Source of the DNA: an uncultured Nitrospiraceae bacterium
Lineage (GTDB): Bacteria > Nitrospirota > Thermodesulfovibrionia > Thermodesulfovibrionales > UBA6898
DNA: 64,000 bases
Assembly: GCA_963811165.1 (NCBI GenBank)
Contig: CAWEQH010000001.1
Span: 320,001-384,000 of the forward strand
Direction of reading: 5' to 3'
Numbering within the stretch: position 1 is the first letter of the stretch; every line of letters starts with the position of its first letter. The position numbers and the translations under genes were made by a program. Positions 8,099-29,233 of this stretch are shown here, in pieces. The notes under the pieces are model-generated. The model did no database searches and was not told where the DNA came from. It saw only the letters and a program-made list of their open reading frames with translations.

Positions 8099-8198
8099 TC
8101 TTGTCGCTATTACTTCCCTATGCCGGCGACAGTTCCCGCCTCCGATAAGTGCTACACTGCCCGTAGCACCTGCCCCAGAGAGTGAAACCGCCTGCAAT

Positions 8199-8253
8199 CT
8201 TCACGGAAATGTAATCCTTCCTTAATAATGCTGTAACTATCATATCGTAAGCT
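8199..8253 (+). promoter_or_regulatory. Pho-box-type promoter for the PHP-GT21 operon
   Basis: CTTCAC-n5-TGTAAT-n5-CTTAAT-n5-TGTAAC-n10-TAAGCT. Confidence 0.8.
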
Positions 8254-8290
8254 AACAACAGCATGGTGAATAAGTTGAGAACTGAGTGTA

Positions 8291-8983
8291 ATGCTGCTGT
8301 GTGATTTTCACATCCACACTACCTATTCAGACGGCTCTGTGGAGCTGAGAAGGACAATCGATCTTTTCGGACAGGCAGGCTTTGATGTTATTTCAATAAC
8401 GGACCATGTGGTCAATGGTGATAATCCGCTTGGAAAGCTCGCACATCGTTTTAAGTATTCTGTAACAGCCGATAACTTCAGTAAATATATTTCCCACATA
8501 AAAGAAGAGGCGCAAAGGGCGCAAGACAAATATGACATGCTCGTCATTCCCGGAATTGAAATAACCAAGAACCGTCTCACCATAGACAACTCAGCCCATA
8601 TGCTGATCATCGATGTCCAGGACTTCATCCCCGCGTGCATAAGTTATGAAGAGATATTCCTGGCGGCGAAGAGACAGAATGCCTTGACGATAGCATGCCA
8701 CCCGCATTATATGTCGGCAAAGAGCGACCGGGACACACTCTTTCTCTGGAACAACAGGGAAAAATATGCCCGCTACATCGACGCATGGGAGATCGCCAAC
8801 AGAGACGACGTCTTCAATGTAATAAGCCTCAAAAAATATCCGTATATCGCAAACAGCGACTTCCACAAGCCCAGACATCTTTACTCCTGGAAGACGCTTC
8901 TGAATTGCGCGAAAGACATAGACTCCATAAAACAGTGCATCAAACATAACAAGGGCGTTGCATTGACACTCTTTAGAAATTAG
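8291..8983 (+). CDS. PHP-domain phosphoesterase
   Basis: DFHIHTTYSDG, ITDH, GIEI, CHPH, ANSDFH motifs. Confidence 0.85.
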   Translation: MLLCDFHIHTTYSDGSVELRRTIDLFGQAGFDVISITDHVVNGDNPLGKLAHRFKYSVTADNFSKYISHIKEEAQRAQDKYDMLVIPGIEITKNRLTIDNSAHMLIIDVQDFIPACISYEEIFLAAKRQNALTIACHPHYMSAKSDRDTLFLWNNREKYARYIDAWEIANRDDVFNVISLKKYPYIANSDFHKPRHLYSWKTLLNCAKDIDSIKQCIKHNKGVALTLFRN

Positions 8984-8986
8984 GAG

Positions 8987-10201
8987 GTGAACATGATTTT
9001 ATTCTGGATCTTTGCGGGTATTACTTGCTTTGGGATAATCGGATATCTGCTTCAAATTGTCGCGGTCCGGTCATATACGGCATCCCCCAACTCAGGGGAA
9101 AGCGTACGCTTTCCCCAATCTTTTTCTCCGGTCTCAATCCTTAAGCCGCTCAAAGGCCTTGATGATGGGCTGTTTGACAACCTCGAAAGCTTCTGCAATC
9201 TTGAGTATCCCCACTATGAGATCATCTTTGCGCTTCAGAACCAGAATGATCCGGCCCATAAAGTGGTAAAAAAGGTAAAGGAGAAATACCCTTTAAAAGA
9301 CATAACCATTGTCGTTGAACATTGTGATGAGGGGCTGAACCCCAAGGTCAACAATCTGATCCCGGCATATAAGAGGGCCAAATATGATCTGATATTGATA
9401 AGCGACAGCAATGTCCGTGTGGAAAAAGACTACCTGGCTGCCATTGCCGGACACATGGAAGATCCGTCGGTCGGACTTGTCAGCAATATGATCAGGGGCG
9501 TACACGGCCGGTCCCTTGGGGCCCTCATGGAAAATCTCCACCTGAACACATTTATTGTGGGAAGCGTCTGCTTCCTCGATAAATATCTTAAGATGCCCTG
9601 TGTCGTGGGCAAGTCAATGCTGATGAGGAAGGCCGAGCTTGAAGCCATCGGGGGCTTCAGGTCTGTCAAGGACTTTCTTGCGGAGGACTACATAATCGGC
9701 CAAAGAATTCACGCACTCGGCAAAAGGGTCGTCCTTTCCGGCCATCTTATCAACAATGTCAATGAATATTGGGGGATAAAGAGGTTTATTAACCGTCATA
9801 CAAGATGGGGAAAGCTGAGATGGCAAATCGGAGGCGCGAAGTATTTCTCCGAATTGGCCGGCAATGCCGTATTCATGTCCTTCATGCCGATGGTCTTCAT
9901 GCCTGCGTCAAAAATTGCTTTATTGCTGGCTGCGGCGGTGAGTTCTCTGAAAATAGTCCATGATTTCTACATCGGCAACAAACTTCGCGCCGATATGAAC
10001 CCCCTGCTCTATTTGCTGTCCCCTGTCAAGGACCTTATTATCGGATTCGTATGGTTTGTGCCGATCCTGAGCAACACCGTAGCCTGGAGGGGCAACAGAT
10101 ATATCATCGGCAAGGAATCGATGCTCTCACCGTATCCGGAGACCGGCATATGGGCATGGCGGTACAGGATCATGGACGTGATAAAAACAAGGATTGCTTA
10201 G
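8987..10201 (+). CDS. Glycosyltransferase family 21 (ceramide glucosyltransferase/HpnI-like)
   Basis: SILKPLKG, NPKVNNL, ISDSNV, LAEDY, RHTRW motif; N- and C-terminal TM segments. Confidence 0.85.
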   Translation: MNMILFWIFAGITCFGIIGYLLQIVAVRSYTASPNSGESVRFPQSFSPVSILKPLKGLDDGLFDNLESFCNLEYPHYEIIFALQNQNDPAHKVVKKVKEKYPLKDITIVVEHCDEGLNPKVNNLIPAYKRAKYDLILISDSNVRVEKDYLAAIAGHMEDPSVGLVSNMIRGVHGRSLGALMENLHLNTFIVGSVCFLDKYLKMPCVVGKSMLMRKAELEAIGGFRSVKDFLAEDYIIGQRIHALGKRVVLSGHLINNVNEYWGIKRFINRHTRWGKLRWQIGGAKYFSELAGNAVFMSFMPMVFMPASKIALLLAAAVSSLKIVHDFYIGNKLRADMNPLLYLLSPVKDLIIGFVWFVPILSNTVAWRGNRYIIGKESMLSPYPETGIWAWRYRIMDVIKTRIA

Positions 10202-13190: not shown

Positions 13191-13379
13191 ATGAATATAA
13201 GATACATTATCTGTCCCCATCTTAAAGGCAGTTATGACGGAGCGGTCTGTAGCGGCGTCAACAAGCTGATCAAGAACATAGAAGGCGTCACCATTAAATT
13301 GTGCATGGGCAGGCATTACGAGGTGTGCTCGATATATCGGGAGTCTCTGCTGCCCCAGGAGCCTGTCAGTGCGGTGTAA
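13191..13379 (+). CDS. Four-Cys microprotein, CPH-x9-C-x17-C-x7-C-SIY
   Basis: Strong RBS GAGGAGGGAGG; shared Cys spacing. Confidence 0.75.
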
Positions 13380-13839: not shown

Positions 13840-13917
13840 GTCTCTTTGCCCTTTTGCTGATTGCCGATGTGCCAATCTTATCGCTTCGCATAATTCAGCT
13901 CAGACCAGCCGGAAAAA

Positions 13918-13973
13918 TTTCATATTTCTTTAACCCAAATGACATCATGCCGTAAAAACCAAAATGATATCCT
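13918..13973 (+). promoter_or_regulatory. Pho-box-type promoter at the head of the HMA2/ATPase cluster
   Basis: TTTCAT-n5-TTTAAC-n5-TGACAT-n5-CGTAAA-n11-TATCCT. Confidence 0.65.
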
Positions 13974-14009
13974 TTAACCGGATCGTATTTGCGGAAGAAG
14001 GGAACTCAT

Positions 14010-14279
14010 ATGGTCACCTATATCATCAAACATCATGTCCCGGGCCGGATAAGACTGGATGTCCCCGCATTGAGAAAAATTGCCGAGCATAGGCTGAAAA
14101 AGATATCGAAGGCCATGACAAGGCTTCCTGTCTTTATGGGGATAAGAGACCTCACGGTGAATCCCGGCAACGGCAGCGTAGCTATTGAATATGACTCCGA
14201 AGTTGTCGACATTATTGATTACCTGGAGGACATGTCAGTTATCGTGGAAACGCTCGATTGTCTGGAAAGACACCGGTGA
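14010..14279 (+). CDS. HMA2-type (heavy-metal-associated-like) domain protein
   Basis: HHVPGRIRLDVP...GIRDLTVNPGNGSVAIEYD signature. Confidence 0.75.
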   Translation: MVTYIIKHHVPGRIRLDVPALRKIAEHRLKKISKAMTRLPVFMGIRDLTVNPGNGSVAIEYDSEVVDIIDYLEDMSVIVETLDCLERHR

Positions 14280-14290
14280 AGGAGAAAAAT

Positions 14291-14644
14291 ATGGCTTGTA
14301 TCGATTATCTGCAGACGGAGGCAAGGTGTTCGAGAGGGATCCCGGTTGCGCATCTTTTCAGGCATTTCTTCTGTGAGTCGAAGCCTGAAAAATGCCCGAT
14401 TGCTTTGTGGAAAGTATCTTCTCGGGAGAAGGATAACAACCACAATCATCTTAAGGAGGAAGCCATGCAATGCCCGCATCTTTTGAAATGGGTGCTATCA
14501 TCTTGCAAAGCCGCGGAGAGACCCTATGTCCCGAGCCTTTTTGAGCTGGAGGAATATTGCAGAACCGGAGAACACAGAAAGTGCCCTTTTTACCTGAGAG
14601 ATATCGTCAGGACCAACACGGCGAGGGTCAAAGTGTCCGCATAA
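14291..14644 (+). CDS. Tandem four-Cys microprotein (two modules; internal start at 14465)
   Basis: RBS AAGGAGA; module 1 C-x9-C-x14-C-x6-C; module 2 CPH-x8-C-x17-C-x7-C-PFY preceded by an internal TAAGGAGG. Confidence 0.7.
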   Translation: MACIDYLQTEARCSRGIPVAHLFRHFFCESKPEKCPIALWKVSSREKDNNHNHLKEEAMQCPHLLKWVLSSCKAAERPYVPSLFELEEYCRTGEHRKCPFYLRDIVRTNTARVKVSA

Positions 14645-14936
14645 CATCTCATGACGCAGTATGTCTGACAATCCCTCTCTGGGGAACCCGCAGCATCGCA
14701 AGGGGCCCGCGTGGACCCTTAAGCGGACCGCGTCTTGAGAGAGTCTCCCCGCCTGAAGGCCGTAAACCCCTTCACGTATCGTTGACCATTGCCGTTAAAT
14801 ATTATCCCAGGCATGAATAAAGTGCCGCGGTTTTGCGGCAGAATTTAATAGGTAGGTAATGAAAGAAGTGTTAGACAATGTGCCGTTTCAGGCGATAGAC
14901 TGATTATATATTAAGAGATTTAAGGAGAGTATTCGT

Positions 14937-15230
14937 ATGGCATTGCTTGATGATGTATTTAAAGGCGGCAACGTGGTAACAGGCTTGGCTATCGGCATCG
15001 GAGCGGCGGTGCTCGGACCGGTTGTATTGCCTATACTGGCCGGGGCTGCGAAACCGTTGGCGAAGGCCGTGATAAAGGGGGGCCTTGCGCTATGTGCAAA
15101 AGGGAAGGAGTCAGCTGCTGAGTTCGGCGAGGTCTTTGAAGACATTGTTGCAGAAGCGAAAGCGGAACTCGCGGAAGAGCACGAAAAGGCAATTCCCGTT
15201 CCGCCTGCCGAAGCTGAAGAAAGTGTCTAA
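14937..15230 (+). CDS. Small GxxxG membrane protein, DUF5132/FezA-like
   Basis: GLAIGIGAAVLGPVVLP...KPLAKAVIKGG...EVFEDIVAEAKAEL; RBS AAGGAGA. Confidence 0.8.
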   Translation: MALLDDVFKGGNVVTGLAIGIGAAVLGPVVLPILAGAAKPLAKAVIKGGLALCAKGKESAAEFGEVFEDIVAEAKAELAEEHEKAIPVPPAEAEESV

Positions 15231-15708
15231 TACCCCGGAAGCATATATAGGCCATAAGATGAATGGCAGATTGAGACTAAGGATCCCTTCGAAAAAAAAA
15301 GACGGCCTATATATGAAAAAAATTACCGAGGAATTCTCATCACTCCCGGGCATTGCGCAGGTAATCGTGAACACCGAGACATCGAGCGTTCTCTTCCTGC
15401 ATGATCTTTCGGAAGACGCAATCATGGGACATCTCAGTGCAAGCGGTCTCTTCCGGCTTTCCGGGGCTCCCACAGGCCGGGGAGACGTGCATCACGGAAT
15501 CAAAGGATGTTTTCGGGAGATGTCCGGCAAAGTCGAGAAGGCGACAGGAGGAACGATTGGCATCAGTGAAGTTGCCTTCCTCGCATTGTTTGGCGCCGGG
15601 GTTATGCAGATAGGTCGGGGGAATTTTACTGCGATCCCCTGGTACACGGCATTTTGGTATGCGCTTAATATTTTTCTGAAATCGGACGCACAGAAGGCCG
15701 GAGAATAG
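15223..15708 (+). CDS. HMA2-type domain with C-terminal membrane segment (FezC-like architecture)
   Basis: HKMNGRLRLRIP...PGIAQVIVNTETSSVLFLH; C-terminal FLALFGAGVMQ...PWYTAFWYA; start overlaps the upstream stop. Confidence 0.75.
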   Translation: MSNTPEAYIGHKMNGRLRLRIPSKKKDGLYMKKITEEFSSLPGIAQVIVNTETSSVLFLHDLSEDAIMGHLSASGLFRLSGAPTGRGDVHHGIKGCFREMSGKVEKATGGTIGISEVAFLALFGAGVMQIGRGNFTAIPWYTAFWYALNIFLKSDAQKAGE

Positions 15709-15838
15709 CTGTACCCATTCAAAACGACGGTGAAGGTGCAGTGAGCCCGAAGAGTTCTATCGTTCTCATCAGCTTTTGAAAAAGGTGAACGGCTCAATAA
15801 ATTAAAGTAACTTTTCTCAACAGAGAAGGAGGTCAGTT

Positions 15839-16522
15839 ATGTCTCGGGAAGAAGTCATGCGCGGTGCCGGTTATGCAGAAGACGTAAGCAAGGCCGGGGC
15901 GACTGTAAAAGAGGGCGTAATCAGCAGCCTTAAAGGTCTCAATGAGATTGAGGCGGAAATCGTGAGTCTCGTGAGGAACACGGTCTCAAACACTTTGCGT
16001 GCAACGGGAGAAGTGGCGATCGAAAGTGTCTCCATTTCAAAGGATGTCATCAAGGGGGCTATCCAGGCCACCGAGGAGGTCGGAACAGGACTTATCCTGA
16101 GCACGAAAAGTGTTGCCAAAGGGGTAATCATGGGGGTGAGCGATGTAGGCGGCGATGTGGTTACGGTAGCAAGCCAGACAGTTAAAGGCGCGGTTAAGGG
16201 GGCCGCTGAAGTCGGCGCGGATGTCGCCCTTGTTGCAAGACGATCTGTCGATGGAGTGATCGAGGCGACAAAGGAGATAGGAGGGAATGTGGAAGAAGTC
16301 GCGAAAGTGGCGGTCGGAGGGGCGATTGAGGCTGCAGGGACAATCGGTAATACGGCGGTGAAGGCTGTGAGGGACATGCTCGTCGGCGTAGTCGAGGGCG
16401 TAAAGGAGATTGCGGGCGCGGCCTTGCCTAAACCGAGGACCTCTTCCCCAACAGCAACAAAAGCTCCTGCGTCAAAACCGGTTGCTGCGAAAAAAGAGGC
16501 TGCGACCAGGAAAAAGAAGTAA
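15839..16522 (+). CDS. Gly/Ala/Val-rich 22-aa repeat protein with Lys/Ala/Pro-rich tail
   Basis: Consecutive 22-mers such as KGAIQATEEVGTGLILSTKSVA, KGVIMGVSDVGGDVVTVASQTV, KGAVKGAAEVGADVALVARRSV; RBS AAGGAGG. Confidence 0.8.
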   Translation: MSREEVMRGAGYAEDVSKAGATVKEGVISSLKGLNEIEAEIVSLVRNTVSNTLRATGEVAIESVSISKDVIKGAIQATEEVGTGLILSTKSVAKGVIMGVSDVGGDVVTVASQTVKGAVKGAAEVGADVALVARRSVDGVIEATKEIGGNVEEVAKVAVGGAIEAAGTIGNTAVKAVRDMLVGVVEGVKEIAGAALPKPRTSSPTATKAPASKPVAAKKEAATRKKK

Positions 16523-16534
16523 GAATAATACCCC

Positions 16535-19500
16535 GTGGTTCGGCCTGTACACGTTGCGGTAAAAGGAAGGGCCCGCTTTAAAGTAGCGGGCCTTTACCGG
16601 TCGGCCCTGCTCAAGGAGCGGATTGAACTCACCCTTAATTCACTCGACGGAATAAGAGAGGCATCGGCCGACACACGTACAGGCAATGTTTTAGTATATT
16701 TCAATTCCGAAAATACTCCCGGGTCAATCGCATCGGCAATCGCCGCTTCAATTTATGACTACAAATCTCAGCATCGTAACAACAATTCGCCGGAAAACAA
16801 AAAAGACGCAGTCGGCATCATACCAGCGCCGCGGGAAGAAGCTTCCAAAGAGCAGGTCAGGCCTGCTATCACGAGGAGGAAGTTAAGAAAGAGCATCATC
16901 AAGGCAGAGGAGCAAAAGCCTGATCCCTGGCACCAGATGGATGTCTGTGAAGTGGCCGGGCGGTTTGGCACCTCCCAGCACTACGGGCTTCCCAGTGACA
17001 TCGCAAAAACGAATCTGAAGCGGTATGGTCTCAATGTCCTTCCGGAGGCGGTGCCCCGCTCCGGGTTAAGCATCTTTCTGGGCCAGTTTAATTCACTTCC
17101 TGTGGCTCTGCTCGGCGTTGCTGCCGGGATTTCAATAGCCACGGGAGGCGTCGCCGACGCGATCGTAATTGCGGGGGTGGTGGTTATCAATGCGGTAATA
17201 GGGTATGGGACTGAAACCCAGACCGAAAAGACGATCCATGCATTGAAAAGCCTTGTCAGACCTTCTGCAACGGTCAAGCGGGACGATCAAATCATAGAGC
17301 TGGGAGCAGAGGAAGTCGTCCCCGGAGATCTGCTGATCCTCAGGCCAGGCAGTTATGTGCCGGCAGATGCAAGACTGCTTGAGACATATCACCTCAGTGT
17401 TGACGAGTCTGCCCTTACGGGAGAGAGTCTCCCTGTAATGAAGACAAGTCTGCCTTGCGCTGTCGAAGAAATCCCCCTTGCAGACAGGATCAACATGGTC
17501 TATATGGGGACTCTAGTGACCGGGGGGCAAGGGACCGCCGTGGTCGTGGCAACGGGCAGGTTTACCGAGATAGGAAAGATCCAGGCGCTCGTGGGAGAGG
17601 CGGAATCTCCAGACACCCCAATGGAGCGGCAGCTTCATAAGATGGGCACACAGCTAGTCTTTATAAGCGGAGCTGTCTGCGGACTTGTCTTTATTGTCGG
17701 ACTTCTGCGCGGATACGGTTTTTTGGAGATGCTCAAGAGTTCCATATCTCTTGCCGTTGCCGCAGTGCCGGAGGGACTCCCTACCGTTGCAACTACAACC
17801 CTGGCCCTGGGGATCAGGGACATGAGGCGGCACAACGTGCTCATCAGGCATCTAAACGCGGTCGAAACGCTGGGGGCCGTGCAGACGATCTGTCTTGACA
17901 AGACGGGGACAATCACGATGAACAGGATGTCGGTAGTCGCTGTCCATACCGGCATGAAACGATATGAGGTCTCAAATGGGACAATCGCGGCTTCACGGCA
18001 GAAGGTGAGCCCCTATTCAGTCGACGAACTTCTGAGACTCTTGCACGTGAGCGTGCTCTGCAGCGAAAGCGAGGTCGAAAGGGAAAAAGGTACTTATGCG
18101 GTCAGCGGCTCTCCTACCGAAAACGCCCTGATCTATATGGCGTTGAACGCCGGCATTAATGCCGTTTCTCTCAGGGAGAGGTTCCCCGTGTTGAATATCA
18201 CTCATCGTTCGGAAAGTCACAATTATATGTCTACTGTCCACAAATCTGAAAATGGATCGGTCATCATTGCGGTAAAGGGGAGCCCCGGAGAGGTCCTTTC
18301 AATCTGCAGCTGGCACATGAAAGACGGAGAGAAGCTTCCTTTGACGGAGGAGGAAATGCTTTTCATAGAGACGGAAAATGAACGCATGGCCGGTCAGGCG
18401 CTCAGGGTCCTCGGCGTTGCCTATTCAGCAAAGGACGATGAGGCGGCCCTTTCCGAAGATAGAAGCGATCTTCATGAAGACCTGATATGGCTCGGGCTCG
18501 TCGGTATGGCAGACCCCATCAGGGAAAATGTGAAAGAACTGGTACACGGGTTCCACGAAGCCGGAATCGATACGGTCATGATAACGGGCGACCAGAGCCC
18601 TACCGCGTATGCGATAGGAAAGGAATTAAATCTGAGCGACAACGGAGACCTCGAAATCCTTGACTCTACGCACCTTGCGAAAATCGAGCCCGAGGTCATG
18701 AAGGCCCTCTGTGAAAGGGTACACGTCTTTGCCCGCGTCAGTCCTGCACATAAGCTCCAGATTGTCCAGGCGCTCCAGTCCGCCGGGAAAGTGGTTGCAA
18801 TGACCGGAGACGGGATCAACGACGGCCCGGCGCTCAAGGCAGCGGATATCGGGATCGCCATGGGCCATACGGGCACCGATGTCGCCCGCGAGGTGGCCGA
18901 CGTGATCATCGAAGACGACAATCTCGAAACAATGCTTATCGCGGTAAGCGAAGGAAGGACGATCTATAACAATATCAGAAAGTCCGTCCACTTTCTCCTT
19001 TCGACCAACCTCAGCGAGATCATGGTGATGTTCACCGCAATATCGGGAGGACTCGGACAGCCGCTCAATGCGATGCAGCTGCTGTGGATCAATCTTATTA
19101 GCGATATATTCCCGGGGCTTGCCCTTGCCCTTGAACTTCCGGAGCCGGATGTGTTGAGCCGCTCCCCCCGCGACCCACACGAGCCGATTGTAAGAAATTC
19201 CGATTTCAAGCGGATAGCTTTCGAGTCGGCAATGCTTTCCGCTGGTTCCCTGGGGGCTTACGGGTATGGCATCGCCCGCTATGGGATAGGACCGCGGGCA
19301 GGTTCGCTTGCATTCCTCAGCCTTACGGCAGGACAGCTTCTTCACGCCCTGAGCTGCCGTTCCGAGCAGCATAGCATGTTCAGCGCCGAGAGACTGCCCC
19401 GAAACAAGTATCTTGAAATGGCACTGGGCGGTTCCTTTGCGCTTCAGATACTGGCAGTGACTGTCCCCGGTCTTAGGAGACTTTTGGGAATAGGTCCTCT

Positions 19501-19594
19501 CAGTATCCTCGACGGTCTCGTGATCGGCGGAAGCGCCGCTTTTCCGCTTCTTGTAAACGAGGCGACGAAATCCTCCTTGAGGTTGGCAAGATGA
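16535..19594 (+). CDS. P-type ATPase of SERCA/P2A type with N-terminal HMA2-type domain
   Basis: LTGES, AAVPEGLP, DKTGT, KGSPG, MITGD, TGDGINDGPALK, STNLSE, LWINLISD; N-terminus HVAVKGRARFKV...DTRTGNVLVYF. Confidence 0.9.
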   Translation: MVRPVHVAVKGRARFKVAGLYRSALLKERIELTLNSLDGIREASADTRTGNVLVYFNSENTPGSIASAIAASIYDYKSQHRNNNSPENKKDAVGIIPAPREEASKEQVRPAITRRKLRKSIIKAEEQKPDPWHQMDVCEVAGRFGTSQHYGLPSDIAKTNLKRYGLNVLPEAVPRSGLSIFLGQFNSLPVALLGVAAGISIATGGVADAIVIAGVVVINAVIGYGTETQTEKTIHALKSLVRPSATVKRDDQIIELGAEEVVPGDLLILRPGSYVPADARLLETYHLSVDESALTGESLPVMKTSLPCAVEEIPLADRINMVYMGTLVTGGQGTAVVVATGRFTEIGKIQALVGEAESPDTPMERQLHKMGTQLVFISGAVCGLVFIVGLLRGYGFLEMLKSSISLAVAAVPEGLPTVATTTLALGIRDMRRHNVLIRHLNAVETLGAVQTICLDKTGTITMNRMSVVAVHTGMKRYEVSNGTIAASRQKVSPYSVDELLRLLHVSVLCSESEVEREKGTYAVSGSPTENALIYMALNAGINAVSLRERFPVLNITHRSESHNYMSTVHKSENGSVIIAVKGSPGEVLSICSWHMKDGEKLPLTEEEMLFIETENERMAGQALRVLGVAYSAKDDEAALSEDRSDLHEDLIWLGLVGMADPIRENVKELVHGFHEAGIDTVMITGDQSPTAYAIGKELNLSDNGDLEILDSTHLAKIEPEVMKALCERVHVFARVSPAHKLQIVQALQSAGKVVAMTGDGINDGPALKAADIGIAMGHTGTDVAREVADVIIEDDNLETMLIAVSEGRTIYNNIRKSVHFLLSTNLSEIMVMFTAISGGLGQPLNAMQLLWINLISDIFPGLALALELPEPDVLSRSPRDPHEPIVRNSDFKRIAFESAMLSAGSLGAYGYGIARYGIGPRAGSLAFLSLTAGQLLHALSCRSEQHSMFSAERLPRNKYLEMALGGSFALQILAVTVPGLRRLLGIGPLSILDGLVIGGSAAFPLLVNEATKSSLRLAR

Positions 19595-20802
19595 AAAAAG
19601 ACTTCATATTTACCTCCGAATCGGTTACCGAAGGCCATCCCGACAAACTCTGTGATCAGATCAGCGACGCGCTTGTCGACCACTTCCTTCAGCAGGACCC
19701 TTTTTCGCGGGTCATTGCCGAATGTGCCGTATCAACGGCGATCATTTTCATCGCCGCGAGGTTTTCGTCCGACGCCAGTGTCGATTTCCCGAATATCGCC
19801 AGACAGGTCATCAACCAGATCGGGTATGACCAGCAGGCCTTTAACGCCAAGACCTGCAGCATAGTCACAAGCCTCAAGGAAGTGCCCTCCGAGGAAAACC
19901 GGCGCTTTGACGAGAGAAATCTGACGGAAGACGAAATCGACGCTATCCCCGTCCGTAATCAGGTCACGGTATTCGGATTTGCCTGCAACCAGACGCCCTC
20001 GCTGATGCCCCTTCCGATCTGGCTCGCCCATCGACTTGCACGAAAACTGACCGCAGTGAGACTCCAAAAGGTACTTCCCTATCTGGCGCCCGACGGAAAA
20101 ACCCAGGTCGGCGTGGAGTATAAAAATGGAAGGCCCTACCGGGTCCATACCATAACGGTCATAGCCAGTCAGAGTAAGACGGAGAAGTCGGGCGGCCCCG
20201 ACCTTAAGAGTCTTTATGGTGATATGCTGGATACCGTCATTCGTCCTGCCTTTGTTGACGAGGAGATCAGGCCCGATGCCGACACAAGGATATTCATAAA
20301 CCCCGATGGTCCATTTATCACGGGCGGGCCCTCAGTGCATTCAGGGCTCACGGGGAGGAAAAATGCGATCGACACCTATGGTGAATATTCCAGGCAAAGC
20401 GGCGCGGCGCTCAGCGGCAAGGACCCTCTTCGGATAGACAGAATCGGCGCGTATGCCGCCCGGTATGCGGCAAAAAATATTGTTGCCGCGGGCATCGCCG
20501 CCGAATGCGAAATCCAGTTGAGTTATTCCATAGGGCTTTCCCGTCCCGTAAGCATCCAGGTGGAAACGTTCGGCACAGGCCGGATTTCCGACGAAGAGAT
20601 CTCCAGGATTATCGAAGGCCGGTTTGATTTCCGCCTCGCAGGGATTGTCCGCCAGTTCAACCTCAGATTTCTCCCTTCCATAATCAAGGGAGGTTTTTAC
20701 AGAAAACTCGCCTCGTATGGTCATGTCGGCAGAATGGATATCGGTCTTCCCTGGGAATTGACGGATAAGGCAGGCATAATTCGTGACGAAGTTGCCGGGT
20801 GA
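19591..20802 (+). CDS. metK: Divergent methionine adenosyltransferase (MetK) paralogue
   Basis: FTSESVTEGHPDK, GLTGRK, SGKDP, YGHVGR present, but GAGDQG and other substrate residues replaced; ATGA overlap with the ATPase. Confidence 0.8.
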   Translation: MKKDFIFTSESVTEGHPDKLCDQISDALVDHFLQQDPFSRVIAECAVSTAIIFIAARFSSDASVDFPNIARQVINQIGYDQQAFNAKTCSIVTSLKEVPSEENRRFDERNLTEDEIDAIPVRNQVTVFGFACNQTPSLMPLPIWLAHRLARKLTAVRLQKVLPYLAPDGKTQVGVEYKNGRPYRVHTITVIASQSKTEKSGGPDLKSLYGDMLDTVIRPAFVDEEIRPDADTRIFINPDGPFITGGPSVHSGLTGRKNAIDTYGEYSRQSGAALSGKDPLRIDRIGAYAARYAAKNIVAAGIAAECEIQLSYSIGLSRPVSIQVETFGTGRISDEEISRIIEGRFDFRLAGIVRQFNLRFLPSIIKGGFYRKLASYGHVGRMDIGLPWELTDKAGIIRDEVAG

Positions 20803-20853
20803 GAGACTCATTACGAGCCTCATAATTGAATAGACATTATTCAGAATTCAGAA

Positions 20854-20952
20854 AATCTCCCCCCCTCTTTACCAGAGAGGGGATTATCCCTCTCCTTTTC
20901 TCCCCGGCGAACCCGCCTGTGTGCGGTGACAAAGGGAGGGCAGGTGGGATTT
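20854..20952. repeat. REP-like palindromic element between convergent genes
   Basis: CCCCTCT-n6-AGAGGGG hairpin and CCCTC...GAGGG arms. Confidence 0.4.
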
Positions 20953-21001
20953 TATAAAACCGTTTCTTCAACAGGGAGGTACGAGATATCCTCTTCCTAG
21001 T

Positions 21002-21877
21002 TTAGACGAAATCTTGCGTGAGATACTCTGCCGGTTCTTTCTGCTGTTTTTGTTCGTAGAGTTCAAGATAGATGTCTGAGAACCCGTACTTCTTGCGAAG
21101 ACTCTGTTTCATCTCCTTCACCCCGGCGCGGTCATAGGTCGTCCCGTTTGTTCTAATTCGTACCAGCAAGATAATTTTTTCCGGGGACAGACCCCATATG
21201 TGGAGATCCTTCACGCTGCTTATATCAGGGAAATTCGTATAGATGAATTTTTCAATCTCCGCGGGGTCTATCTTTGCGGGGTTGCCTTCCATGAGGATAT
21301 GCACGCTCTCCTTTACCAGAAAGTAGGTCGGATACGCGACGAGGAGTCCAATGATGACTGCGGTAAGGGGGTCCAGGAAATAGAGGCCCGTGAACTTTAT
21401 GACAATGGAAGAGGTTATGACCCCGACTGACCCCAGTGCATCGTTTGCGATCAGCAATAGCGCGCCTTTAAGGTTGATGTCTGCCGAGTGCCTGTAAAAC
21501 ATGATGAACCCATACGCATTGACTGCAAGTCCTATCACTGCGATTAAGAGTACCTTGTCTGCCTCGAGTGGCTGGGGATGCATGATCTTGCTATACGCGT
21601 CGGCAAAGACATAAAAAAGGAGAAACCCTACCAGTATCCCGTTGAACAGGCCCGAGATCACCTTGGCCCGTTCGTACCCGAATGTCTTGGTTTTGGTAGG
21701 CAGGCGCTTTGCGAGCCGCGCAACATAAAACGCGACGAATTGACCGGTGATATTGATCGCCATGAAAGAGGCATCGGTAACCAGGGCCAGGCTTCGGTAA
21801 TAAAGCCCGCCGAAGAGTTCGACAAAGAAGTATGCAATCGTCAGAAGGAGAACAGTTTTTTGCTGATTACTATCCAT
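21002..21877 (-). CDS. Cation diffusion facilitator (CzcD/ZitB-like) with non-canonical metal site
   Basis: SLALVTDA, KTFGYER, NLKGA...DALGSVGV, KDLHIW; six TM segments. Confidence 0.85.
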   Translation of the reverse strand: MDSNQQKTVLLLTIAYFFVELFGGLYYRSLALVTDASFMAINITGQFVAFYVARLAKRLPTKTKTFGYERAKVISGLFNGILVGFLLFYVFADAYSKIMHPQPLEADKVLLIAVIGLAVNAYGFIMFYRHSADINLKGALLLIANDALGSVGVITSSIVIKFTGLYFLDPLTAVIIGLLVAYPTYFLVKESVHILMEGNPAKIDPAEIEKFIYTNFPDISSVKDLHIWGLSPEKIILLVRIRTNGTTYDRAGVKEMKQSLRKKYGFSDIYLELYEQKQQKEPAEYLTQDFV

Positions 21878-22141
21878 GTCTTAACAGTGTTGACAGCCAG
21901 CTTTTCGGAGAGTCTTCCAAATAATGGCCAACGACATCTTTCACAGCCTTACCGAGCGAGATGTACATACTTTAATGCCTCGCTAACACTGTGTCCAACG
22001 ATTAATTCATTACTTGCCTATCCTATAGCAATAAAAGCAGAGGCAATTGGCAACCCGAAGGGCTCTTAACGCTGTGGTATAGTAATAAAAGGCCGGGGAT
22101 ATTCCGTAAAAAAAGGGAAACGAAAGGGAGGTCTTATTGAA

Positions 22142-22486
22142 ATGGACTACTACATCCATTATACGCATGGAAGGATGAGAATACAGACCCCTCATCTTCA
22201 CGAAAATCCCGCCAAGGCGAAAGAACTTGAGGACTTTCTCAAAAAAGTTTCGGGCATACTGTCGGTCGAAACAAATCCCGTTACGGGCAGCGCCCTGTTT
22301 TATTTTGACGAGAAAAAGATAAACTGCGAACAGATAATCTGCATGCTCGAAAAGAACCATTATCTTTGTCTCCTCAAGGCAGAGACGAACGATCAAGTCG
22401 TTAAAAAAACAGCCGAGAAGGTCCTGGGATTTGCCGAGAAGGTCGTTGTCGATTCCCTCGGGGAGGGACCCATTGAGGGTGAATGA
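22142..22486 (+). CDS. HMA2-type domain protein
   Basis: YIHYTHGRMRIQTP...GILSVETNPVTGSALFYFD; RBS AGGGAGG; paralogue of 32565..32933. Confidence 0.8.
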   Translation: MDYYIHYTHGRMRIQTPHLHENPAKAKELEDFLKKVSGILSVETNPVTGSALFYFDEKKINCEQIICMLEKNHYLCLLKAETNDQVVKKTAEKVLGFAEKVVVDSLGEGPIEGE

Positions 22487-22792: not shown

Positions 22793-23271
22793 ACAAAATG
22801 ATTGAGGTGCCTTTCTCAGATCGACTCTTCATCATAGGGCCTGCACGCTAAGGGTATCCGGTCTCTTTATGAGTAAAGAATAACAATTTCTCCTATCAAA
22901 GTGAATGCAATCATAGGCAGATAATGAAAAAACAGCAGAGGGTATCTCACATCCTCCGGAGCTTTGGTGATACACTTTAATCCAGAGAACCGATAGGCCA
23001 AATCCTTTCGAGAAGGAGGAGATGAGTCGGGTACTACAAGCAACGTTCCGCAAATTTTCGTAGGATAAGCGATGGCAAGTCGGCCTGGTTACGTATAAAC
23101 ATTTGTTGTGCCTATTACAGGCGGAGGGGTGTAATGAATGCTGAAGCGACCGGTAACGTACATGACGGCCCTTTCCGAAGCCATACCATGACATAGAGAA
23201 GGGCGATTACGGAGCAGTCTTTTCTATTTGCAATGTTCTTTTTTTACTTTTTTTGTAAGGATGAGGGAATC

Positions 23272-23493
23272 ATGGAAGGTGTATGTCCGTATGACAACGA
23301 TGCGGAAGAGAGACAACATGCGAAGGCCATCCAGATGCTCGCAAGAGATTTGGGCGTGCCCGAGAAGAAGATAAGAGAACTTTACGAGGAATTTCTTTGC
23401 AGTATCAAGGGAGGGGCAAGGATAAAGGATTATCTCACTGTTTTGGCGAGTCGTAACGTAAAAGAGGTGATAAGGAGGGGTTCGCTTCAGTAA
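23272..23493 (+). CDS. Small helical protein, DUF3562-like
   Basis: AIQMLARDLGV...ARIKDYLTVLASRNVKE pattern; RBS GAGGG. Confidence 0.65.
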   Translation: MEGVCPYDNDAEERQHAKAIQMLARDLGVPEKKIRELYEEFLCSIKGGARIKDYLTVLASRNVKEVIRRGSLQ

Positions 23494-23639: not shown

Positions 23640-23694
23640 TTTCACGGAATTTTAATTCAATCGTAATGATAGGGTAATTTGAGAATTGTACAAT
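23640..23694 (+). promoter_or_regulatory. Pho-box-type promoter
   Basis: TTTCAC-n5-TTTAAT-n5-CGTAAT-n5-GGTAAT-n10-TACAAT. Confidence 0.8.
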
Positions 23695-23732
23695 GCAGTA
23701 TCGATTCAAATTTTTTTTCCGAGGGAACCAAA

Positions 23733-23936
23733 ATGGAGGATAAGGGAAAGGAGGAGATGGCAATGAATGTGGACCTGCATGATGTAATACAGCAGCTTGC
23801 ATGCGAACTCTATGTGAAAAGCGGAAAGGCTGAGGGTCGTGATCTTAACAACTGGATCGAGGCGGAATGGATTATCACAAATCGCTTCGCGCGTACCGAA
23901 GATCTCAACAATATCTTCGCAGAAGTGGCGGGGTGA
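23733..23936 (+). CDS. DUF2934-like small protein
   Basis: IQQLACELYVKSGKAEGRDLNNWIEAE; start may be 23757. Confidence 0.7.
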   Translation: MEDKGKEEMAMNVDLHDVIQQLACELYVKSGKAEGRDLNNWIEAEWIITNRFARTEDLNNIFAEVAG

Positions 23937-24791: not shown

Positions 24792-24895
24792 AGCTATAGG
24801 ATATTTCGCTGATCTTGGCGAAGGGCACAGGGGATGGATATGCGACTAACGATCCCTTTGTGAAATAGTGATTGCATCCGATGAGGAGATCGAAA

Positions 24896-25708
24896 ATGAA
24901 GATAAGGCCTGTAGCACTGATGGGGGTAACCATTTTTTTCGTACTTCAGATAGGCACTATCGTGTACGGTTTCAAGCCGGCTGATCTGGATAGATTGAGG
25001 GCAACCAATCAATGTCCCCAGTGTGACCTGAGCGGGGCGGACCTGAGCGGGCTGGACCTGGCGGGGCAGGATCTCAACGGGGCGGACCTGAGCGGGGCGA
25101 ACCTGAGCGGGACGGACCTGAGCGGGACGGACCTGAGCGGGGTGAACCTTAACGGGGCGAACCTGGGCGGGGCGAACCTCAACGGGGTGGACCTGAGCGG
25201 GGCGAACCTCAACGGGGCGGACCTAAACGGAGGGGACCTCAACGGGGGAAACCTGGACGGGGTGGACCTGAGCGGGGCGAACCTCAACGGGGTGACCCTA
25301 AGCGGTGTGAACCTGGACGAGGTGAACCTCAGAGGGGCGGACCTGGAAGGGGCCAACCTAGAAGGGGCCAACCTCAACGTGGTGAACCTGGACGAAGTGA
25401 ATCTGACCGGGGTGAACCTGGACAAGGTGAACCTGGCTGGCACAGACACGGCCGAAACGAACCCGGATGGAACGAACCCAAAAGAGACTAGCACAAAGGG
25501 AGCTAATCCGCATGAAGCGAACCCGGATGGAGCGAATCCGGATAGCGCTGATCAGAACGTGCCAAGCGCGGATAGTGCGTCTTTGAGGGACGCAGATCTT
25601 TCAACCTTGGATAAGCAGGGCAATAGATCCAGCAACAACGGCAGCCCTCTTTTGACTGCCGGACAGCAGATAGTCACCATAAAAGGGGGTGAGATAAAGA
25701 TTCATTAG
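24896..25708 (+). CDS. Exported acidic pentapeptide-repeat protein
   Basis: Signal peptide, CPQCDL cap, long run of A(D/N)LxG repeats, then xNPDG-type repeats. Confidence 0.85.
   Translation: MKIRPVALMGVTIFFVLQIGTIVYGFKPADLDRLRATNQCPQCDLSGADLSGLDLAGQDLNGADLSGANLSGTDLSGTDLSGVNLNGANLGGANLNGVDLSGANLNGADLNGGDLNGGNLDGVDLSGANLNGVTLSGVNLDEVNLRGADLEGANLEGANLNVVNLDEVNLTGVNLDKVNLAGTDTAETNPDGTNPKETSTKGANPHEANPDGANPDSADQNVPSADSASLRDADLSTLDKQGNRSSNNGSPLLTAGQQIVTIKGGEIKIH
25025..25440 (+). repeat. 15-bp tandem repeat encoding the pentapeptide units
   Basis: Iterated variants of GGGGCG(G/A)ACCTGAGC / GGGGTGAACCTCAAC. Confidence 0.8.
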
Positions 25709-25764
25709 GCATTGCAGGGTGAGAAGCGTCAATAACAGCAGCATACCATAAACAAAAAGGAGAG

Positions 25765-27567
25765 ATGAATACCATGAAGAAAAAAGTATTGACTAGTTTA
25801 GTTTTTGTGCTGGCCTTTGCTGTGTTCAGCACGGCGGCTTTCGCAGGCATTCTGAAAAAGCCCTACTTGATTTACCCGGGGGTGAACACCCAGATGGAGG
25901 TGGTCTGGCAGGACGACACCGCGAGCGAGACGAATACCATTAGTTGGGGCACCGACATGACGTACAGCATGGGTAATGTGACGGCGCCTGAGTTCGGCGA
26001 CAGGCAGCACAAGTACACAATCACCGGACTGACGCCGAACAAGAAATACTACTACCAGGTGGCTGACCAGACCAGCGGCGCCATCTACGGCGCCGGATCG
26101 TTTATCACTGCGCCCCACGGAAGCGCAACTGCGGTAAGGTTCCTCGCATTGGGTGATTCCAGGAGCCAGCCATTTGCCCTGGACAACGTGATGCAGGCGA
26201 TGCGCAGCTTTTATTCACAGCCAGGCAACGAGGACTATCAACGCCTTACCATTCATAACGGGGACTGGGTGAGCACCGACGGCGAAAGCTACTGGACGAC
26301 CCAGTGGTTCGACGCGACCAAGACGGACATCGTCGCATTTACGGCGAATTCGCCCATCGACGGATGCAAGGGTAATCATGATAACGCTTCAGGGTACAGC
26401 GCTACCTTCCCGAAGTACTTTCCCTTCCCGTATACGAATATGACTTCTAAAACAGTTGCTCCTACAACAGATGCCAGTGGTAATCCTTACTACAATAACC
26501 TCTACTGGTCCTTCGATTACGGTCCGGTCCACTTCACCGTTGTCGACGAGTACTCAAGCTATGCTCCAGGCTCCCCCCAGTACAACTGGCTCGTAAACGA
26601 TCTGGCCACGACAACAAAGCCGTGGAAGATCCTAATATACCACGAGCCGTCGTATTCCGCCGGCAAAGACGGCGACAACATCACTGCGAGGGCGCTCGAA
26701 CCTCTCATCACTCAATATAATGTGGACCTGGTCTATGCCGGCCACAGCCACAACTATGCCCGCACCGGGGCCTATACTTCCGCCCAGGCAAACGGTGACC
26801 AGATCGCCCTGAATGTCCCGCATATCACCAGCGGCGGCGGCGGCGCACCAGTTTATCAGCCCGATATGACCAATGAGGGCAACTTTCCGCACGTAATCAC
26901 AGCCTGGCCGGCCATGGAGTTCATGACCTTCGACGTAGATGGGGAAAACCTCACCATGACCGCCTATCAGGTAAACAACGTGAGTACGTCCGCTATCCAG
27001 CCTTCGTCGGCGCTGTCCCTTTCACCGATCGAGACTGTTGCTCTCCATCACTTTACCGACGTCTCATCGCAGGTAAGCGTAAAAACCACCCACATGACTT
27101 ACAATCCTGCGACCCAGCTATACCGGTGCAACCTGGAGATCACTAATAACGGCCCCGCCCTCACCGGTAACATCCACGTTGTTCTGGACGGCATTGTCAA
27201 CCTCCAGGGGGTCGGCAATGCAGATAACGAATACAGCACCACCACTCCGAAAATTGCCTCAAAGATCGCCCAGAACACCGGCCTCATCACGGACGTCACG
27301 CTGGTCAATGCAACCGGTTCGAACAATGGTGAGCCGATGATCCGGGCTAAACATACCGGATTGGCCAAAAGAGACTCGGTCGTCGTTCCGCTATCGTTCA
27401 GCAATCCGAATAACACAGCGATTACCTTTACGCCTGTGGTGTTGCTTGAACGAGAACATGGGCGTCAGTGCAACCGGCGCGAACAATGTCGAACCGATGA
27501 TGATAAGGGCTACGACCAATGGTCTGGCAGCCGGCAAGAAGACAGTCATTCCGCTGAAGGTCGGTGA
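25765..27567 (+). CDS. Secreted purple-acid-phosphatase-like metallophosphoesterase with FN3 domain
   Basis: Signal peptide; GLTPNKKYYYQV FN3; LGDSR, HNGDWV, GNHD, YHEP, AGHSHNY metal motifs. Confidence 0.85.
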   Translation: MNTMKKKVLTSLVFVLAFAVFSTAAFAGILKKPYLIYPGVNTQMEVVWQDDTASETNTISWGTDMTYSMGNVTAPEFGDRQHKYTITGLTPNKKYYYQVADQTSGAIYGAGSFITAPHGSATAVRFLALGDSRSQPFALDNVMQAMRSFYSQPGNEDYQRLTIHNGDWVSTDGESYWTTQWFDATKTDIVAFTANSPIDGCKGNHDNASGYSATFPKYFPFPYTNMTSKTVAPTTDASGNPYYNNLYWSFDYGPVHFTVVDEYSSYAPGSPQYNWLVNDLATTTKPWKILIYHEPSYSAGKDGDNITARALEPLITQYNVDLVYAGHSHNYARTGAYTSAQANGDQIALNVPHITSGGGGAPVYQPDMTNEGNFPHVITAWPAMEFMTFDVDGENLTMTAYQVNNVSTSAIQPSSALSLSPIETVALHHFTDVSSQVSVKTTHMTYNPATQLYRCNLEITNNGPALTGNIHVVLDGIVNLQGVGNADNEYSTTTPKIASKIAQNTGLITDVTLVNATGSNNGEPMIRAKHTGLAKRDSVVVPLSFSNPNNTAITFTPVVLLEREHGRQCNRREQCRTDDDKGYDQWSGSRQEDSHSAEGR

Positions 27568-27664
27568 ATCGGACCACTGGAAGCATTAATCCGAATAATG
27601 CCGGCCTTACCTTTTACCCCTGTGACATTGCAGGAACAGGAGAAAAAAATGCAGTAATTATGTC

Positions 27665-27698
27665 TGCAGACCAGGGGCCTTCGGGCCCCCGTTTGCAT
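27665..27698 (+). terminator. GC-rich hairpin downstream of the phosphatase gene
   Basis: GGGGCC-TTCG-GGCCCC flanked by TGCA...TGCA. Confidence 0.5.
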
Positions 27699-27724
27699 TA
27701 TCATCGACAGCTTCTGAGTATCGC

Positions 27725-27779
27725 TTTAACGAAAAAATAATATTCATGTAATACTCACGCAATATAAAAGGAATACTAT
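27725..27779 (+). promoter_or_regulatory. Pho-box-type promoter for the radical SAM operon
   Basis: TTTAAC-n5-AATAAT-n5-TGTAAT-n5-CGCAAT-n10-TACTAT. Confidence 0.7.
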
Positions 27780-27809
27780 TTACTGTGAGAAAAAACAGAG
27801 ACCAATACA

Positions 27810-28916
27810 ATGACAACCAAAAAGGATATGCCGCGGCTTAAGCGTACCAAGCTCATTTCATTGATTATTCTTGCGCTCTTCGGGAGCCTGTTGTTGCCGC
27901 CGCTCTCCGGATCTGCGACCCAGGACAGCACGGCAGTGGACGAGCTTAAGCAGAAGGCCCAGCAGGCGTATATCGGCAGCCGCTATTCCGAGGCCGCCGC
28001 CACTTTCATTGAAATCGCCGAGAAGCATCCTGAAAGTGCGCCCCGTCGTTACGCCGTACAGATGCTGGGGACCCTGTATGAAGACAACCTTGTCGACATA
28101 AAGAAGGCGATCAAATGGGACCGGGAATTTCTGGAGAAATATGCTGGCCCCAGGCAGATCGCTTTTTACAAGGAGAAACTGGCCTCTCTCGAAAAGCTGA
28201 TGAACCAGGAGCAGGCCTTCAAGACCTATCAGGCGATCCGGTTCGCCAATGCCGGAGATGAAATCATGGTGAAGAAATTCGAGGCGTTGCTGAAGGAACG
28301 CCCTGATTTTCTTTTGAAGGACGATGTCCTGAGGGAGCTCGGATATGCCTATGACCGCATGGACAAGCGCCGGCAAAGCTATCTCGCCTTTAAGGCCATT
28401 GCCGCCCATAACGGCGAAAATAAACTCTCTGCAAGCGATCAGGTGGCCTATGAAGCGGCGAGCCGCCACTGGCAAATGTCATGGGCCTGGGCATGGGCCG
28501 CATGGGCAGTCATAGTGGCGCTCTGGGCTGCGGTCCTGCTGATGAATCCGTGGAAACAGCTTTCCCGATCCTCGATCAGAAATTTCCTGATTGTGGTTCT
28601 CCTTTGGGTGCTTTTGAATGCTCTCAGGATGCCGACCTTCTATTCCATGGAGACCGGGGGCTATCCAATCGTCATCCCCGATACTGTGGTTTACATGGTT
28701 GCCGGACTCAACTTGACGGTCCTCTTCTGGCTGCTGCTCCTGACCGGAGGAAAATTCTGGCAGACCCACCCCAGGGCGCTGCGCTGGCTCAGCCCCGTCC
28801 TCACCCTGCTGATGACCACGGCAGTTCTCTATCTATTTTTTGTATACCATCCCAATGGACCAGCGATTATAGACATTTTTGTCGACACGTTACGGTACAA
28901 AGCAGGGCTTCTGTAG
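27810..28916 (+). CDS. Membrane protein with extracytoplasmic TPR-like helical domain and four C-terminal TM segments
   Basis: Signal peptide, TPR-like helices (LGTLYED, LGYAYD), hydrophobic C-terminus. Confidence 0.75.
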   Translation: MTTKKDMPRLKRTKLISLIILALFGSLLLPPLSGSATQDSTAVDELKQKAQQAYIGSRYSEAAATFIEIAEKHPESAPRRYAVQMLGTLYEDNLVDIKKAIKWDREFLEKYAGPRQIAFYKEKLASLEKLMNQEQAFKTYQAIRFANAGDEIMVKKFEALLKERPDFLLKDDVLRELGYAYDRMDKRRQSYLAFKAIAAHNGENKLSASDQVAYEAASRHWQMSWAWAWAAWAVIVALWAAVLLMNPWKQLSRSSIRNFLIVVLLWVLLNALRMPTFYSMETGGYPIVIPDTVVYMVAGLNLTVLFWLLLLTGGKFWQTHPRALRWLSPVLTLLMTTAVLYLFFVYHPNGPAIIDIFVDTLRYKAGLL

Positions 28917-29008
28917 CGGACTGGGGGAACAATGAGCAGGAGACCGCGGCAAATGAACCGCACAGATCCCTGGAACAAAGAGAAAAAAGAAGAAGGAAGG
29001 TGAAAGAA

Positions 29009-29233
29009 ATGAAAGGACGAATCCTGAAGGTCAAGACTGGCTACAACCCGAATTCAAGCAGTATCGGCGTAGATATGGTGGTCTTCTTCACCGCCGGAGC
29101 GGCCATGACGGTCCTTTTCAATACTTTTGCTGCGGTCGTTAGTACGGCAAAGGGCCATGAGCACGGGCGACCGGAAGAAATGATAGAAATGCCCCTGCTT
29201 AGTCATGGGGAAGAGAAGGGGCGAGCGTTATGA
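29009..29233 (+). CDS. 74-aa protein with GYNPNSSS motif and one hydrophobic segment (candidate radical SAM substrate)
   Basis: MKGRILKVKTGYNPNSSSIG; purine-rich RBS; ATGA overlap with the radical SAM gene. Confidence 0.65.
   Translation: MKGRILKVKTGYNPNSSSIGVDMVVFFTAGAAMTVLFNTFAAVVSTAKGHEHGRPEEMIEMPLLSHGEEKGRAL

Follow-up and report, generated by a model that had tools for sequence, protein, structure and literature searches.

A conserved operon joining a calcium-type P2A ATPase, Fez/PacL-like accessory proteins and a candidate repurposed MetK in an uncultured Nitrospiraceae bacterium

What does a calcium-type pump do among small proteins of the kinds that accompany ferrosome pumps? The question is raised by a gene cluster in 64,000 nt of the genome of an uncultured Nitrospiraceae bacterium (contig CAWEQH010000001.1, positions 320,001 to 384,000; genome of 3.66 Mb, 95% complete), a stretch hereafter called the window. 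A preliminary description of this DNA proposed a ferrosome-like compartment cluster inside a Pho island, built around a Ca2+-type P-type ATPase and storing or mobilizing a phosphate or polyphosphate deposit under phosphate control. We find a conserved operon that combines a FezA/PacL-like GxxxG protein and CoBaHMA proteins (Pfam family HMA_2) with a single clade of P2A-type ATPases and a partner of the MetK fold, here called MetK2. Full-text literature searches returned no description of the operon or of the MetK2 subfamily; supplements to ferrosome and CoBaHMA studies may list the CoBaHMA-P2A architecture. The operon is apparently an undescribed variant of the Fez/PacL kind, real and widespread, with a putatively repurposed MetK.

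Pfam and motif scans of the window recovered the parts that had been claimed for the cluster: HMA2 proteins, a DUF5132 protein, a repeat protein, a P-type ATPase and a coupled MetK paralogue. A synteny check shows that the set is also kept together elsewhere, in several phyla. We gathered loci with three anchors, whose sets overlap and contain kin that are not independent: MetK2 (80 loci, the best of 235 confirmed stretches), the pump in metagenomes (the best 80 of 379 gave 78 loci, 68 of them with at least 400 nt downstream), and DUF5132 (40 regions chosen from 65 positive genomes among 401). The pump lies directly upstream of MetK2 in 78 of the 80 MetK2-anchored loci; one of the exceptions, L082, ends at a contig edge, and the other, L097, is genuine. 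DUF5132 is present in 44 of these 80 loci, the protein that joins a CoBaHMA domain to a transmembrane (TM) segment (HMA_2-TM) in 33, and the repeat protein in 24. Approached from the pump, MetK2 is the neighbor in 65 of 68 loci (63 identified by script plus L224 and L225 in the same output), with three lacking it. The DUF5132 anchor yields pump and MetK2 together in 25 of 40 regions, the pump alone in 1, a P1B pump in 11, and no pump in range in 3. Further, 52 of the 55 MetK2-bearing genomes in the 401-genome sample also encode DUF5132. The conserved core consists of DUF5132, HMA_2-TM, an optional repeat protein, the P2A pump, and MetK2, which is the pump's most constant partner.

The hosts are Nitrospirota (including Magnetominusculus), Desulfobacterota, many Nostocales (among them the cultured Cylindrospermum sp. 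NIES-4074, locus L056, and Sphaerospermopsis kisseleviana NIES-73, locus L109), Coleofasciculus, and one gammaproteobacterium. In cyanobacterial copies, a single protein combines DUF5132 with the C-terminal half of the HMA_2 model; the pump and MetK2 follow, and general-stress-type genes surround the set. The closest named relative, L031, encodes a MetK2 96% identical to that of the window and places the host in the Thermodesulfovibrionales group of the Nitrospirota. Searches of 14 other genomes sampled from the host family found no repeat protein, no DUF5132, and no MetK2, a patchy distribution; the module was probably acquired by its host. In locus L061, the pump-MetK2 pair is carried on a Nostoc plasmid, in line with horizontal spread.

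The preliminary description had given the pump an HMA2-type N terminus and SERCA-type motifs. Indeed, it carries VPEGLP, STNLSE, and WINLISD, the last two aligning with SSNVGE and WVNLVTD of SERCA2. Its top NCBIfam models are IIA2 and IIA1, both under cut-off, and its closest PDB relatives are LMCA1, SPCA1, and SERCA, with which it shares the TM4/TM5/TM6 ligands, DKTGT, and TGES. The ion site comprises E413, N825, E828, N853, S856, and D857, with Q934 at the position of SERCA E908; we take the SERCA ligands to be E309, N768, E771, N796, T799, D800, and E908. Among 94 pump homologues, N825, E828, N853, and D857 are invariant, E828 being retained where LMCA1 and SPCA1 carry Ala. The E309 equivalent is likewise present in all 94, partly owing to the sequence filter, and Ser or Thr occupies the equivalent of position 799. 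The window pump differs from other P2A pumps in its N-terminal CoBaHMA domain (H6, G11, R12, and R14 in 93 of 94 homologues), its dedicated partner genes, a Gln in place of the TM8 Glu of SERCA2 (Q934, 87 of 94), and, three positions farther on, a His present in every homologue (H937, 94 of 94). A quick tree of 34 proteins gathers the 19 CoBaHMA pumps into a single group among the P2 pumps (Shimodaira-Hasegawa-like approximate likelihood ratio test [SH-aLRT], 100), apart from CopA, FezB, and KdpB; this tree and the top NCBIfam models both point to a P2A-like rather than a P1B enzyme. From these residues, Ca2+ would be the likeliest ion, with Mn2+ possible.

MetK2 shares its three methionine adenosyltransferase domains with Escherichia coli MetK and TIGR01034, and its start codon overlaps the pump stop codon (ATGA), in keeping with the coupling noted earlier. 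Across 80 members aligned to E. coli MetK, H14, D16, K17, E42, D163, K245, K265, and D271 are invariant, and R244 and K165 are present in 79 and 78, respectively; these retained residues include the triphosphate, Mg2+, and K+ ligands of MetK. The methionine site, in contrast, is rebuilt. E55 is Arg in 66 of 80 members, Q98 is mostly Leu, D118 is Asn in 65 and Asp in 10, and D238H and K269R occur in all 80, the His and Arg being present in 147 of 147 members of a larger motif-filtered set. The window protein has E55R, Q98V, D118N, D238H, and K269R in E. coli numbering (R57, V98, H250, and R281 in the protein itself). In MetK, the amino group of methionine is described as bound by E55 and D238 and its carboxyl by Q98 and K269 (PMC3853416, PMC1282579), with His14 described as catalytic (PMC3853416). 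The invariant replacements speak for selection of a new function instead of decay, and the more cationic pocket for an anionic ligand, which suggests that MetK2 is a repurposed MetK. Unlike canonical MetK, it is an extra copy wherever checked and is fixed behind the pump: a canonical metK coexists with it in 11 of 11 genomes, namely the window genome (contig C4) and 10 of 10 others. These observations bear on one further account of the locus, in which a standard calcium pump and an additional functional S-adenosylmethionine (SAM) synthetase lie by chance among unrelated small genes. MetK2 does exceed the TIGR01034 cut-off (373.7 versus 309.4), and atlas clusters name it a methionine adenosyltransferase. 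With the methionine-binding residues replaced, the canonical enzyme retained, and the gene order fixed across phyla, we regard this account as highly improbable.

The accessory proteins resemble those of fez clusters. A genome-wide scan found exactly five HMA_2 (PF19991) matches, all within the window, including the domain that the preliminary description placed near 32565. The match at the pump N terminus scores 26.5 bits by hmmscan (cut-off, 30) and 30.2 in a six-frame scan. All five domains carry H..GRxR and none has CxxC; the CoBaHMA signature is described as a His before beta1 together with a basic RxR (PMC8890360). The product of the gene at 14937 matches DUF5132 alone at E values up to 0.05, with DUF1490 and DUF6110 not matched, and has a single TM helix with GLAIG (GxxxG; hydropathy peak, 2.3) and an acidic amphipathic helix, as had been claimed of a GxxxG DUF5132-like protein. 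HMA_2-TM bears a PWYxxxW motif in its membrane part and a conserved tail. A predicted complex between the pump CoBaHMA domain and the DUF5132 protein scored 0.02.

Published fez clusters are described as combining a GxxxG protein, a pump with an R-rich N terminus, and membrane and soluble R-rich proteins (10.1101/2020.01.10.902569). The window cluster has the same components, with the RxR of these proteins present as GRxR in its five HMA_2 domains and the GxxxG in the TM helix of its DUF5132 protein. For comparison at the profile level, we turned to the Desulfovibrionaceae, where HMA_2 occurs in 68 of 121 genomes. Among 20 regions fetched, seven show a small gene, a DYSC[AT] pump, and an HMA_2 gene in fezABC order. 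DUF5132 matches the profile of the FezA-position proteins (P, 77%; E, 2e-5; 43 columns) and HMA_2-TM that of the FezC-position proteins (P, 96.7%), both without an unrelated-protein control. The accessory kit is therefore common to both at the superfamily level, and the expected similarity of the small proteins to Fez proteins holds for broad families; judged by these profile matches, one kit is used with both P1B and P2A pumps. The two systems differ in that the window pump is P2A with a Ca2+-type site rather than P1B-6, the setting is Pho rather than iron homeostasis, MetK2 and the repeat protein are added, and the membrane part of FezC is unrelated. Since a P1B-6 FezB, marked by D[Y/F]SCA and HNxxT motifs, is lacking, the cluster is not a ferrosome, although its accessory families are akin to those of one.

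The P1B pumps in 11 of the 40 DUF5132-anchored regions read D[YFL]xTG (DYGTG) at TM4 and join FezB (DYSCA) in the quick tree. Loci L116 to L121, L137 to L141, and L151 to L153, from other Nitrospirota families, cyanobacteria, and Magnetominusculus, are DUF5132/HMA_2 clusters of this sort (D[YFL][GAC]TG at TM4, sister to FezB), several with a ParA-like gene alongside, and may represent a Fez-related system of other specificity.

A calcium transporter beside these families has a precedent. In Microcystis, DUF5132 and CoBaHMA genes are described as flanking ccyA and cax, which are linked to intracellular CaCO3 (10.1101/2024.07.07.602159; PMC8890360). The transporter there is a Ca2+/H+ exchanger rather than an ATPase, and the context is carbonate rather than phosphate. 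No family resembling calcyanin, the protein with a triple GlyZip domain, was noticed among the recurrent clusters of our loci, a comparison that included no GlyZip profile search.

The 22-residue period proposed earlier for the repeat protein is genuine: its self-similarity at lag 22 is 1.28, compared with a maximum of 0.18 in 500 shuffles, and its helices are amphipathic. An alignment-based AlphaFold model (mean predicted local distance difference test [pLDDT], 78.7) shows short helices stacked on one another, while the single-sequence model reaches a pLDDT of 49.9. In fold comparisons the alignment-based model comes closest to designed helical repeats (Z, 16.9; root mean square deviation, 5.1; 173 residues aligned), which imply no function. 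DUF6781 came up as an atlas lead (score, 0.77). A scaffold role is plausible. Strong matches occur in 51 of 401 genomes of the phylum. The repeat domain is also found fused to MucR (PF05443) and receiver (PF00072) domains, with up to five copies per genome.

A motif of four 11-bp repeats lies upstream of pstS, phoB, phoH, and further island genes, a position from which we infer binding by PhoB. Scored by a matrix built from eight other sites of the window genome, the box at 13917 to 13956 reaches 19.4 and ranks 19th of 7.3 million positions. The Pho box reported here is thus real, and it heads hma1 rather than the pump operon, because it faces hma1 in relatives in which that gene is divergent from DUF5132. 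A 290-bp gap with a hairpin separates hma1-orf14258 from the DUF5132 gene; read-through from the hma1 box into the pump operon is possible. Among related loci, all 25 pump loci of the phylum that reach 10 kb (with one shorter locus set aside) contain sites scoring at least 19, as do 23 of 34 noncyanobacterial MetK2 loci. The control groups, which differ in GC content, gave such sites in 1 of 11 P1B loci, 1 of 19 P1B loci from Desulfovibrionaceae, 4 of 174 genome tiles, and no more than 4% of shuffles. In relatives, a box stands ahead of the Zn-ribbon/HMA_2 pair in 47 of 57 cases, ahead of pstS in 21 of 24, and directly ahead of the repeat-pump-MetK2 unit in 23 of 82. Similarly, pst, phoU, or psiE genes are found in 8 of 30 long noncyanobacterial loci versus 1 of 35 cyanobacterial ones. 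The placement of the pump inside a Pho island is therefore borne out outside cyanobacteria; direct phosphate control of the window operon and of the cyanobacterial copies is weakened.

The proposed polyphosphate deposit has also lost ground. Neither polyphosphate kinase PPK1 nor PPK2 was found in the window genome, and PPK1 was not found in 51 of 55 carriers (two genome lists compared by eye), making canonical polyphosphate an unlikely deposit. PPK1 is present in both cyanobacteria checked. An anticorrelation between PPK1 and the operon was considered and rejected, as PPK1 is rare in these families with or without the operon; the PPK1 genes of families f3 (2 of 35) and f25 (1 of 64) are all in operon carriers. 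At G321:C63, G158:C113, and G379:C7, the PPK1 gene is located no more than about 14 kb from the operon, next to paralogues of the repeat protein, or next to a DUF5132/P1B cluster.

The same island invites an explanation centered on the cell envelope, in which the pump would support the Pho response by moving Ca2+ outward for extracytoplasmic phosphatases or by a role in phospholipid replacement, CoBaHMA domains would read anionic lipids, and MetK2 would adenosylate an anionic acceptor to form a separate product. The island encodes a purple-acid-phosphatase-type protein and GT21, PHP, and GH1 genes. GT21 (12 loci), PHP (11 loci), and acyltransferases recur in the 146 pooled loci, and the rebuilt MetK2 pocket swaps acids for Arg, His, and Asn. 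The CoBaHMA domain has been hypothesized to bind anionic lipids (10.64898/2025.12.07.689555). Such neighbors are far less constant than the core, however, and may reflect the island only; the cyanobacterial loci lack them. We consider this explanation improbable.

Our tentative preference is for a module of the Fez type reorganized around a calcium pump, that is, a compartment loaded by the P2A ATPase. The DUF5132 and HMA_2-TM proteins would gather the pump into a membrane domain of its own, which would bud inward, as in ferrosomes, to give a lipid-bounded compartment. The pump would then drive Ca2+, possibly Mn2+, from the cytosol into this compartment, where it would be stored as amorphous calcium phosphate; the ferrosome mineral is described as a metal phosphate (10.64898/2026.06.16.732667). 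Under phosphate limitation the compartment would be built in readiness, as fez genes rise in low iron. MetK2 would make no SAM and would instead bind ATP or tripolyphosphate (PPPi) at its intact Mg/K site, hydrolyzing or producing PPPi or reporting phosphate status to the pump. A bolder version, which we think unlikely, makes the system a calcium counterpart of the ferrosome: an organelle storing phosphate as calcium (tri)phosphate, its anion-pocket MetK making or breaking tripolyphosphate, in lineages mostly lacking polyphosphate kinase.

Several observations weigh against a compartment. FezB was not found, D[YF]SCA being present in 0 of the 10 P-type ATPases of the window genome. The DUF5132-FezA match is weak and confined to the cytosolic helix, and the FezA-position proteins match, below cut-off, a different Pfam family, DUF6110. 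HMA_2-TM has the layout of FezC, an HMA domain with two TM segments, but shares with it only the HMA_2 domain; the membrane segments do not align. The repeat protein is modeled as a compact solenoid rather than an extended membrane coat, and it is dispensable, not having been found in cyanobacterial or Magnetominusculus loci; the cyanobacterial operon has only three genes. Deposition of phosphate under a starvation regulon is counterintuitive. Only 4 of 99 DUF5132 genes have a box upstream, and sites scoring at least 19 occur in just 2 of 37 cyanobacterial MetK2 loci. In the window no box lies directly before the operon: the two-repeat site reported before 14937 gives no signal above background (best three-repeat score, 4.0; rank, about 1820), and a Pho box there was rejected. 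Finally, divalent-cation transporters recur among the 146 pooled loci (CorA, 12; CDF, 11; TerC, 9; MntP-like, 8).

Some of these points fit a platform like the effluxosome, in which DUF5132 would stabilize and cluster the P2A pump in the cytoplasmic membrane for Ca2+/Mn2+ export, with no compartment. Export would occur when phosphate ligands are scarce or uptake is high, and MetK2 would be a triphosphate-sensing regulator. PacL is described as having a TM helix with a glycine groove and a Glu/Ala-rich tail and as related to DUF6110 (10.1101/2021.10.01.462712; PMC13043812), the plan of the DUF5132 protein and the family that FezA-position proteins weakly match. PacL/Ctp pairs, with this similar scaffold, are described as membrane patches for efflux, with no organelle in the accounts available to us. 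P2A pumps are thought to hold cytosolic Ca2+ low and so avoid phosphate precipitation (PMC10654040), and both the recurrent cation transporters and the minimal cyanobacterial form suit simple export. PacL/CtpC and the window cluster share a small single-TM glycine-groove protein beside a P-type ATPase; they differ in that the window protein belongs to DUF5132 rather than DUF1490 and lacks the C-terminal His metal motif, and in the P2A pump with its additional CoBaHMA, repeat, and MetK2 genes. In the parts available, the PacL accounts mention no FezC-like or soluble CoBaHMA partners, which the window cluster has; the window genome already encodes a plain P2A-type pump on contig C10; and simple efflux leaves the near-obligate MetK2 unexplained. 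We take this platform to be a serious possibility, though not the one we would choose: the membrane and soluble CoBaHMA partners, as in fez clusters, lead us narrowly to prefer the compartment.

The elements of the locus are collected in Table 1.

Table 1. Features of the pump operon and associated genes, in window coordinates
Positions	Strand	Feature	Basis or remark
13917..13956	+	Pho-box-type site, four 11-bp repeats	heads hma1-orf14258
14010..14279	+	hma1, soluble CoBaHMA (HMA_2) protein, peripheral	PF19991 E 6e-9, 36.4 bits
14258..14644	+	orf14258, small Cys-rich open reading frame (ORF), peripheral, start uncertain	Pfam: no match
14937..15230	+	DUF5132 protein, core; FezA/PacL-like scaffold candidate	PF17195 E 7e-16, 58.5 bits
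15223..15708	+	HMA_2-TM protein: CoBaHMA plus C-terminal membrane segment, core	PF19991 E 2e-11, 44.7 bits
15839..16522	+	22-residue helical-repeat protein, predicted alpha-solenoid, accessory	period test, AlphaFold model
16535..19594	+	P2A-type ATPase with N-terminal CoBaHMA domain, core	NCBIfam, PDB matches, residues, quick tree
19591..20802	+	MetK2 (MetK paralogue), core	triphosphate/Mg/K residues kept, methionine site rebuilt
21002..21877	-	CDF (ZitB-like) transporter, occasional neighbor, non-core	library matches; locus counts
22142..22486	+	hma4, soluble CoBaHMA protein	PF19991 E 2.5e-15, 57.2 bits
32565..32933	-	hma5, soluble CoBaHMA protein; second gene of Pho-boxed Zn-ribbon/HMA_2 pair	PF19991 E 3e-10, 40.5 bits
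32930..33232	-	double Zn-ribbon protein coupled to hma5, recurs beside operon	box at 33295 (-)

The GTG start of the HMA_2-TM gene overlaps the DUF5132 stop codon. The CDF gene, which had been counted as a cluster member, was rejected as a core gene: it is antisense to the operon and rare at related loci (1 of 80 MetK2-anchored and 11 of 146 pooled). It is convergent with metK2, with a terminator-like hairpin at 20875 to 20894 between the two. The soluble CoBaHMA genes are mobile in placement, hma1 lying on the opposite strand in L038, L039, L041, L042, L101, and L110, and the hma4 family recurring near the operon with varying position and strand. Paralogues of orf14258 are present on contigs C4 and C8 of the same genome.

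Further island genes surround these features. Small ORFs that recur in such islands lie at 13191 to 13376, 14258 to 14644, 23233 to 23493, and 23679 to 23936; they comprise two Cys-rich families without a Pfam match, DUF3562, and DUF2934, of which the Cys-rich ORFs and DUF2934 sit behind Pho-type boxes. GH1, PHP, and GT21 genes at 6809 to 10201, likewise behind Pho-type boxes and recurrent near the operon, may serve phospholipid-to-glycolipid remodeling. The region from 24872 to 32464 holds a Pho-boxed pentapeptide-repeat protein, the purple-acid-phosphatase-type protein, a 368-residue membrane protein, a radical SAM/SPASM enzyme, and a HupE/UreJ protein. Compared with L124, the pstC, pstA, and phoU genes between 34925 and 38036 are each broken up by frame changes, which reflect sequencing indels or decay.

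With this operon, the scaffold principle of Fez and PacL would carry over from heavy-metal P1B pumps to pumps of the calcium type, and intracellular calcium minerals would gain candidate genes beyond the calcyanin system. The operon also brings to light a multiphylum MetK subfamily whose members clear the metK annotation threshold although they lack the methionine site. The three-gene version is present in cultured Nostocales, which makes the system directly testable.

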